From: Escherichia coli
Lineage (GTDB): Bacteria; Pseudomonadota; Gammaproteobacteria; Enterobacterales; Enterobacteriaceae
NCBI RefSeq assembly: GCF_016026235.1
Contig: NZ_CP065613.1
DNA: 64,000 bases
Strand: one strand, 5' to 3'
The notes below the pieces were generated by a model. That model was not told the DNA's origin. It searched no databases and saw only the letters and a program-made list of their open reading frames with translations. Below are positions 17,923 through 18,096 of this stretch, piece after piece. The position numbers and the translations under genes are program-made. Position 1 is the stretch's first letter; each line of letters starts with the position of its first letter.

Positions 17923-18076
17923 GTTTGTTTCCTGTTGCGTTACGCGAATCATTATAGAGTGTGTTGTGTCATTCGCAACCGTTGGTTTGACAAAAACACA
18001 TATCCGGGGCTATATTCCCTGAACGCCAGCAAATCTGGCGTCGGGATTGGCGTCCCGGATATCGAAACGGTGCATA

Positions 18077-18096
18077 ACCGCGCTGGCGGTTTTTTT
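18077..18096 (+). terminator. intrinsic terminator-like hairpin plus T-run
   Basis: ACCGC-GCTG-GCGGT followed by TTTTTTT at 18091-18097. Confidence 0.4.

Follow-up and report, generated by a model that had tools for sequence, protein, structure and literature searches.

What is the structured, non-coding stretch that lies between a higB gene and a set of antirepressor genes in an Escherichia coli prophage? The question concerns positions 18000-18096 of a 64,000-nucleotide (nt) stretch of contig NZ_CP065613.1 (assembly GCF_016026235.1), called here the window, for which the original prediction had described an inverted repeat of 9 base pairs (bp) around two hairpins, followed by an intrinsic terminator, and had allowed for a small RNA (sRNA), a regulatory leader or a protein-binding site. 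The element belongs to the isrK RNA family by the curated criterion of that family, and it is very probably the promoter-proximal RNA of an antirepressor switch of the phage P1 immI type, situated in the nin region of a lambda-like prophage. The prediction overlooked the neighbours that explain the element, namely a promoter (17987-18016), a C4 antisense RNA (18123-18207) and repeated sites in front of the antirepressor gene.

The outer repeat, both hairpins and the terminator are all present where the prediction had placed them, and the element comprises the following parts.

18000-18008, plus strand: left arm of the outer repeat, ATATCCGGG, by sequence inspection
18023-18041, plus strand: hairpin 1, ACGCCAG-CAAAT-CTGGCGT
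18042-18057, plus strand: hairpin 2, CGGGA-TTGGCG-TCCCG, which displays site a1
18047-18053, plus strand: site a1, TTGGCGT, within a repeated decamer (GATTGGCGTC, 18045-18054) in the loop of hairpin 2
18054-18062, plus strand: right arm of the outer repeat, CCCGGATAT, by sequence inspection
18061-18069, plus strand: site b1, ATCGAAACG, in a single-stranded linker; the complement of a loop segment of C4, GTTTCGA
18076-18096, plus strand: intrinsic terminator, AACCGC-GCTG-GCGGTT with a closing run of T7 (ACCGC-GCTG-GCGGT plus T7 at 18077-18096), from a terminator scan; the third hairpin of the isrK model

Once a single G-T pair is permitted, the outer repeat grows to 11 pairs (18000-18010 with 18052-18062). 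A 9-bp inverted repeat alone is not rare, and the window holds 64 seeds of perfect repeats of this length at ≤60 nt, compared with ~15 per 64 kb in simulations that preserve first-order base composition. The composite structure is not a product of chance; the RNA from 18000 to 18062 folds at −35.8 kcal/mol (z = −5.0). The absence of a convincing open reading frame (ORF) also held up, as the only one that overlaps the element has 71 codons and a TTG start (17890-18105).

A covariance-model scan, which had been put forward as a check, places the element in a described family. The Rfam isrK model (RF01394) matches its full length to 18023-18096 of the plus strand with 68.3 bits (cut-off 50), and, after an interval of 26 nt, the Rfam model of C4 antisense RNA (RF01695) matches 18123-18207 of the same strand with 68.7 bits (cut-off 45). 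Both matches were confirmed at gathering thresholds over the whole window, and the Rfam scan returned no tRNA-like or other RNA families at this region beyond isrK, c4-a1b1 and C4. By every RNA criterion examined, the region is a C4-type antisense switch. Of the functions first entertained, sRNA and regulatory leader are both apt, because the isrK match exceeds its cut-off and IsrK is documented as both (PMC4825925).

Immediately upstream of this RNA, a promoter scan identifies the following site.

17987-18016, plus strand: sigma-70-type promoter with −35 TTGACA (17987-17992), an 18-nt spacer and −10 TATATT (18011-18016), 11/12 positions

The −35 and −10 hexamers are invariant or nearly so in 35 homologues. 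The RNA start predicted from them, ~18023, coincides with the base at which hairpin 1 and the isrK model both begin, and the P1 record annotates a promoter, P1c4 (formerly P51b), in the corresponding position. Homology to the near-identical copy in E. coli VL40 begins precisely at 17987, that is, at the −35 hexamer.

Downstream of the terminator, the sites displayed by the element recur on the far side of the C4 RNA and lead directly to an antirepressor gene.

18123-18207, plus strand: C4-type antisense RNA (Rfam RF01695), with a fold of −39.9 kcal/mol, z −4.0
18127-18234, plus strand: 35-codon ORF overlapping C4, in the same position as orf45 of Gifsy-1
18166-18172, plus strand: C4 segment b′, GTTTCGA, a hairpin loop in the predicted fold
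18179-18188, plus strand: C4 segment a′, ACGCCAACCC, single-stranded in the predicted fold
18197-18229, plus strand: hairpin TCACCACC / GGTGGTGA (18197-18204 with 18222-18229), whose loop displays a2 and whose arms are conserved in homologues
18209-18218, plus strand: site a2, GATTGGCGTC, in that hairpin loop; the second copy of 18045-18054
18240-18248, plus strand: site b2, ATCGAAACG; the second copy of b1
18259-18945, plus strand: antirepressor gene, with Pfam domains ORF6N and P22_AR_C (E-values 4.6e-21 and 2.1e-28)

The minimum-energy fold of the C4 RNA is the family structure. Repeat analysis shows the upstream and downstream copies of both sites (a1 and a2, b1 and b2) to be complementary to C4 at 18179-18188 and 18166-18172, respectively, and the predicted duplex of IsrK with C4 pairs 18042-18069 with 18165-18189 at −31.6 kcal/mol. 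The ribosome-binding site (RBS) of the antirepressor gene, GAGG at 18250-18253, is one base past b2 and precedes the ATG at 18259; in the annotation of P1, the equivalent b2 is the site of translational repression. The 5′ arm of the a2 hairpin doubles as the 3′ strand of the stem that closes C4, so that folding of mature C4 and display of a2 are mutually exclusive within one molecule. The promoter scan found no promoter-like site in 18096-18123, which fits a C4 RNA derived from a precursor, and the 5′ end of P1 C4 is reportedly made by RNase P from a longer transcript. In E. coli, a near-identical gene carries the annotation 'phage antirepressor Ant'.

The short ORF that overlaps C4 was considered as a conserved peptide gene and rejected: it has no Pfam match, and its equivalents in homologues change frame, range from 8 codons up to in-frame fusions with the antirepressor and in some cases lack the ATG. 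What is conserved at this orf45-type position is therefore the RNA and not a reading frame.

Relatives were gathered in stages. The 351-nt region matches 277 phage records, mainly Stx-converting phages, at 67-88% identity, and the succession of isrK, C4 and an antirepressor-type gene is found in 16/16 loci first fetched (E. coli prophages, Stx phages, Nil2, ArgO145, a Klebsiella phage and SfV). Scanning viral contigs with two patterns brought in more distant relatives, for 125 distinct leader sequences in all; the first collection scan gave 68 pattern hits, with hairpin 1 in 19 loci (18 distinct sequences), and the others were discarded as chance. Gifsy-1 was not recovered from the phage collection queried with the IsrK consensus. 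Both dyads are conserved in the 35 homologues, as the prediction had implied they should be. Hairpin 1 has 96% of cells paired and compensatory double changes in 6/7 pairs; hairpin 2 has 94% of cells paired, with changes only from G-C to G-U, and is too conserved to show covariation.

The strongest comparative signal comes from the sites themselves. The 125 distinct loci carry 24 different a1 heptamers, and yet an exact complement of a1 is present in the C4 region of 124 of them, with an identical second copy of a1 ≤70 nt 3′ of that complement in 122, compared with 0/2875 for non-cognate heptamer complements. The b sites are more variable, and the same three-way covariation is visible in the alignment. 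Predicted duplexes agree: leader-C4 pairs average −32.8 kcal/mol when cognate and −24.8 kcal/mol when non-cognate, and downstream-C4 pairs average −28.1 and −21.5 kcal/mol, respectively, each difference being reached in 0/5000 permutations.

This covariation bears on a plainer account, in which the element is a bare stop of the nin region, comparable to lambda tR2-tR4, that halts rightward transcription in the absence of antitermination and yields a functionless RNA. The terminator at 18076-18096 is indeed a good one and has the same orientation as ninB, dam and ninE, and the modules of Stx phages directly follow ninE in the rightward operon. A plain terminator, however, would have no need for a1 and b1 to track C4, a2 and b2 through 125 loci, nor does it account for a conserved promoter of the element's own or for compensatory changes in hairpin 1, and the homologous RNA of Gifsy-1 works in trans; the bare stop is therefore very improbable.

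Two further observations concern the element's sequence and its models. The 5′ arm of hairpin 1, CGCCAGC (18024-18030), can pair without a mismatch with GCTGGCG (18082-18088), which forms the loop and 3′ arm of the terminator; this pairing, at −14.5 kcal/mol in the window and in L003-type loci (L numbers label individual loci), is part of the minimum-energy fold and would disrupt the terminator. As a read-through switch it was rejected, with cognate pairs at −6.67 and non-cognate pairs at −6.58 kcal/mol and 4059/10000 permutations as good, and we treat it as lineage-specific. Separately, isrK (RF01394) and c4-a1b1 (RF03163) match the same nucleotides in the window (18010-18096), in P1 (L017, 3218-3312) and in most of the loci first fetched; isrK has no Rfam clan, c4-a1b1 and C4 are both in CL00128, and RF01394 and RF03163 appear to describe one RNA.

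The closest experimental precedent is IsrK of Gifsy-1 (Rfam RF01394; Hershko-Shalev et al. 2016, PMC4825925). Its promoter drives the entire locus, and IsrK exists both as a terminated sRNA and as the 5′ part of a read-through mRNA that is itself untranslated (PMC4825925). In trans, IsrK pairs with the 'orf45' region and raises translation of the antirepressor anrP more than 100-fold, and point mutants are inactive (PMC4825925). The mutations that matter are at G28 and G31 of IsrK and at C159 and C162 downstream (PMC4825925), positions that appear to fall in the P1-type a1 and a′, as judged from Rfam consensus numbering with the Gifsy-1 sequence unaligned. A processed RNA, STnc1160, derives from the orf45 region (PMC4825925), and it is only from the Gifsy-1 experiments that Hfq binding and trans activation of antirepressor translation are known (PMC4825925). 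The window resembles this locus in having an RNA with three hairpins, a predicted promoter of its own and a probably leaky terminator, followed by a region complementary to the middle of the sRNA, a short ORF over that region (35 codons as against 45 in Gifsy-1) and an antirepressor gene. It differs in that the loop of hairpin 1 has one base fewer, the Q-type antiterminator does not lie upstream as antQ does in Gifsy-1, and the module sits in the nin region beside a higBA pair; in addition, the Rfam scan detected no counterpart of isrJ beyond the antirepressor gene, where there is just a terminator-like site (18963-18982).

The organization of the window is equally close to that of immI in P1 and P7, with the RNA parts in the same order, a pair of short sites that recurs on both flanks of C4, and b2 adjoining the RBS of the first downstream gene. 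This region is said to comprise an a1/b1 leader, the C4 antisense RNA, a2/b2, icd and ant. The P1 record annotates it as promoter P1c4, a1, b1, c4, a2 and b2, with a1 and b1 marked as putative only, and states that C4, by pairing with a2 and b2, represses the icd-ant operon; C4 is known to block ant expression (PMC8198154). The P1 leader scores 51 bits with c4-a1b1 and weakly, 35 bits, with isrK. Unlike immI, the window has no icd, and its antirepressor gene, which directly follows b2, shows no sequence similarity to P1 Ant1; moreover, the host is a lambda-like prophage and P1 a plasmid prophage. Thus, the protein genes are not those of the P1 immI operon, and it is the RNA switch that the two have in common.

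Two other phage systems are less similar. In immI of the lambda-like phage P22, the sar small RNA limits synthesis of the antirepressor (ant); sar is transcribed antisense over the start of ant, and the promoter is under the control of the proteins Mnt and Arc. The RNAs of the window, by contrast, all come from one strand and act via short duplicated sites. The immunity region of P4 (seqA, CI RNA, seqC) likewise places a processed small RNA between two complementary target sequences, with an outcome, premature transcription termination of the replication genes, that is unlike translational control of an antirepressor. The IsrK authors called seqA of P4 a structural homologue of IsrK (PMC4825925).

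On these precedents, a switch would operate as follows. The sigma-70 promoter at 17987-18016 would be constitutive and initiate at ~18023, and most transcripts would end at 18096 as a 74-nt IsrK-type sRNA that displays a1 in the hairpin 2 loop and b1 in the linker. A minority would read through to give a transcript that contains the C4-type RNA (18123-18207) and the antirepressor message. The C4 RNA, via b′ and a′, would pair with a2 and b2 ahead of the antirepressor RBS and block translation, keeping the prophage repressor safe. The sRNA holds exact copies of a2 and b2, so the abundant sRNA would compete for the same C4 segments and could relieve the block. Family membership, promoter, terminator, complementarities and covariation are results of the window analysis; repression in this scheme is borrowed from P1 and activation in trans from Gifsy-1. 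That the same regulation operates in this prophage, and that a decoy for C4 joins the two published descriptions, is suggested by analogy.

A narrower alternative would grant the locus its C4 switch and make the element a cis-only 5′ leader of the C4-antirepressor transcript, which sets folding or read-through, with the terminated RNA a by-product that has no activity in trans. The predicted fold of 18023-18262 does pair the a1/b1 region with the C4 segments intramolecularly, reminiscent of the inactive 'structure A' of Gifsy-1, and the merely putative status of a1 and b1 in P1 points the same way. The short RNA of Gifsy-1, however, activates translation in trans at least 100-fold, an effect lost in point mutants, and the window sequence offers nothing to separate it from the Gifsy-1 case; a leader active in cis alone is accordingly quite unlikely.

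Several points weigh against the switch as we have described it. At the level of the models, c4-a1b1 (RF03163) reaches 45.3 bits at 18010-18061 (E = 1e-9), 1.4 bits under its cut-off of 46.7; the VL40 copy, with one extra A in the hairpin 1 loop, scores 49.6 bits. The 74-nt RNA alone is only modestly more stable than its shuffles (z = −1.9), and its minimum-energy fold (−28.7 kcal/mol) differs from the three-hairpin structure (−26.5 kcal/mol). The lack of icd and the unrelated antirepressor set the locus apart from P1. In Gifsy-1, mutations in cis at the equivalent of a1 increased basal translation, where a simple decoy model predicts otherwise, and the IsrK authors explain activation via an upstream ORF (PMC4825925), which is not conserved as an ORF in the homologues here. 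The start site, the efficiency of termination, the processing of C4 and the effect on the antirepressor at this locus are those we infer. Finally, the switch does not explain the complementarity between the promoter spacer and hairpin 2.

That complementarity is the outer repeat. Its left arm lies between the −35 and −10 of the element's own promoter, upstream of ~18023, and is therefore outside the RNA made from that promoter; consequently the repeat does not enclose the sRNA, contrary to what a start at 18000 would imply. Complementarity of the spacer or −10 region to the 3′ flank of hairpin 2 recurs with differing sequences in many lineages, among them P1, Stx phages and metagenomic phages, as these left and right arms illustrate.

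Window, 18000-18010, plus strand: left arm ATATCCGGGGC, between the −35 and −10
P1: TTCAGGCT / AGCCTGAA, promoter spacer and 3′ side of hairpin 2
L013-type phages: ATTCCGGGAC / GTCCTGGAAT
L022-type: CCGAGA / TCTCGG
L134: TGCGGGG / CCCCGCA
L143: GATACTG / CAGTATC

A fixed-register count of the outer helix gave 61% of cells paired, compared with 56% in shuffles, a low value because the register shifts between lineages, and this test was replaced by free-register comparisons of cognate and non-cognate duplexes. In 23 representatives, cognate duplexes average −12.75 and non-cognate −10.0 kcal/mol (1/20000 permutations), and in 92 representatives −10.88 and −9.16 kcal/mol (0/20000 permutations), counts that overstate the significance because the representatives are not phylogenetically independent. 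The antisense strand gives a weaker signal (−9.77 and −9.06 kcal/mol, 92 representatives), and the cognate signal is absent from a control block at −50 to −31 (23 representatives). When G-U pairs are allowed, the longest complementary run, otherwise 5 pairs in both L013 and L056, reaches 13 and 11 pairs, respectively, which favours sense-strand RNA over a DNA site. The complementarity is missing in about a third of the sampled lineages.

These comparisons also argue against the repeat as a protein operator, for instance of a repressor of the sRNA promoter or of HigA from the divergent toxin-antitoxin operon. One arm does fall within the promoter spacer, the arm centres are ~54 bp (roughly five helical turns) apart, and a promoter-like site for the divergent higB lies 9 bp to the left. 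Half-sites so widely spaced would be unusual for a dimeric operator, though; the complementarity is kept in other lineages via G-U-type pairs, its signal is clearly stronger on the sense strand, as expected for RNA rather than duplex DNA, and the repeat is found in modules that have no toxin-antitoxin neighbour. A 17-nt consensus of the P1 C1 operator is unmatched in the window at ≤3 mismatches. We found no evidence to support the protein-binding site that had been raised, and an operator is highly unlikely. Each of the three rivals to the P1 immI-type switch, namely bare stop, cis-only leader and operator, is poorly supported.

The repeat could instead be a selected RNA helix outside the Rfam isrK, c4-a1b1 and C4 models, formed only in transcripts started upstream of the sRNA promoter, a possibility we hold tentatively and consider rather doubtful. 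If so, hairpin 2 would be swapped for a long stem (18000-18019 with 18043-18062) that buries a1 or creates a site for double-strand-specific cleavage, and the same DNA would give an active decoy or a masked RNA depending on where transcription starts. The most economical idea is that such an alternative fold may arise in lambda-like phages by read-through of the rightward operon and in P1 from the C1-controlled promoter P2c4 (formerly P51a), which is annotated upstream of the left arm. The promoter scan predicts no second plus-strand promoter near the element, unlike P1 with its C1-controlled upstream promoter, and we found no open-access literature text on the P1 promoters P51a and P51b. The spacer complementarity is the only part of this locus that might be new.

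The element is otherwise an ordinary member of a described family, useful for annotation and unsurprising to a specialist. Its main value is indeed for annotation, since the RNA gene is unlisted here, in three near-identical or related E. coli records inspected, and several phage records place small hypothetical proteins over it. The region would be the control that decides whether the prophage antirepressor is made, and related modules occur in many Stx-converting phages; the comparison also indicates that the Salmonella 'IsrK/orf45' and P1 'a1b1/C4' literatures concern one system. In their variation the a and b sites resemble specificity labels (24 variants of the a site), and they could serve to predict cross-regulation of antirepressors between prophages.

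The host element is a lambda-like prophage, and the switch is in its nin region: ninB, dam and ninE precede it on the same strand, a divergent higB/higA pair is inserted directly before the promoter, and further antirepressor fragments and rusA lie downstream. A match to the lambda cIII thermoregulator (RF01804, 88.5 bits, 9318-9376, minus strand) confirms the prophage type. The position between higB and the antirepressor genes given by the original prediction is correct; higB, for its part, is an incidental neighbour, because homologous modules follow ninE with no toxin-antitoxin genes nearby. For the same reason, and because the homology to VL40 begins at the −35, membership of the element in higBA was rejected.

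Toxin-antitoxin pairs nonetheless turn up at this junction in six prophages, in each case divergent, immediately upstream of the sRNA promoter and of differing kinds (HigB/HigA in the window, RelE/ParE with a helix-turn-helix protein, and others). Their coordinates are 17339-17986 in the window, 2328-2955 in L001, 3002-3585 in L002, 831-1359 in L003, 775-1423 in L006 and 885-1396 in L011, and the promoter junction appears to be a site at which such cassettes insert repeatedly. In the window, nested short inverted repeats (GTTGCG/CGCAAC and GCGAAT/ATTCGC, 17934-17979) overlap the predicted minus-strand higB promoter (17978-17951) and are candidate operators for HigA.

The first antirepressor gene is followed by a truncated Rha-type fragment (19014-19274), an ORF6N ORF (19271-19687) and a KilAC/ANT ORF (19621-20040), the last two overlapping in different frames; 19014-20040 has the appearance of a second antirepressor gene that a frameshift has divided. 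Further on, 3′ of rusA and of a 172-codon ORF (20581-21099), adjacent genes for tRNA-Asn (GTT) and tRNA-Thr (TGT) occupy 21163-21318, inside the prophage. Matches to sRNA-Xcc1 (RF02221) over the cut-off were found in the window at 2890-2978 of the minus strand and at 2653-2736 in L005 and 2561-2651 in L006, just 3′ of the antirepressor genes of those two phages.
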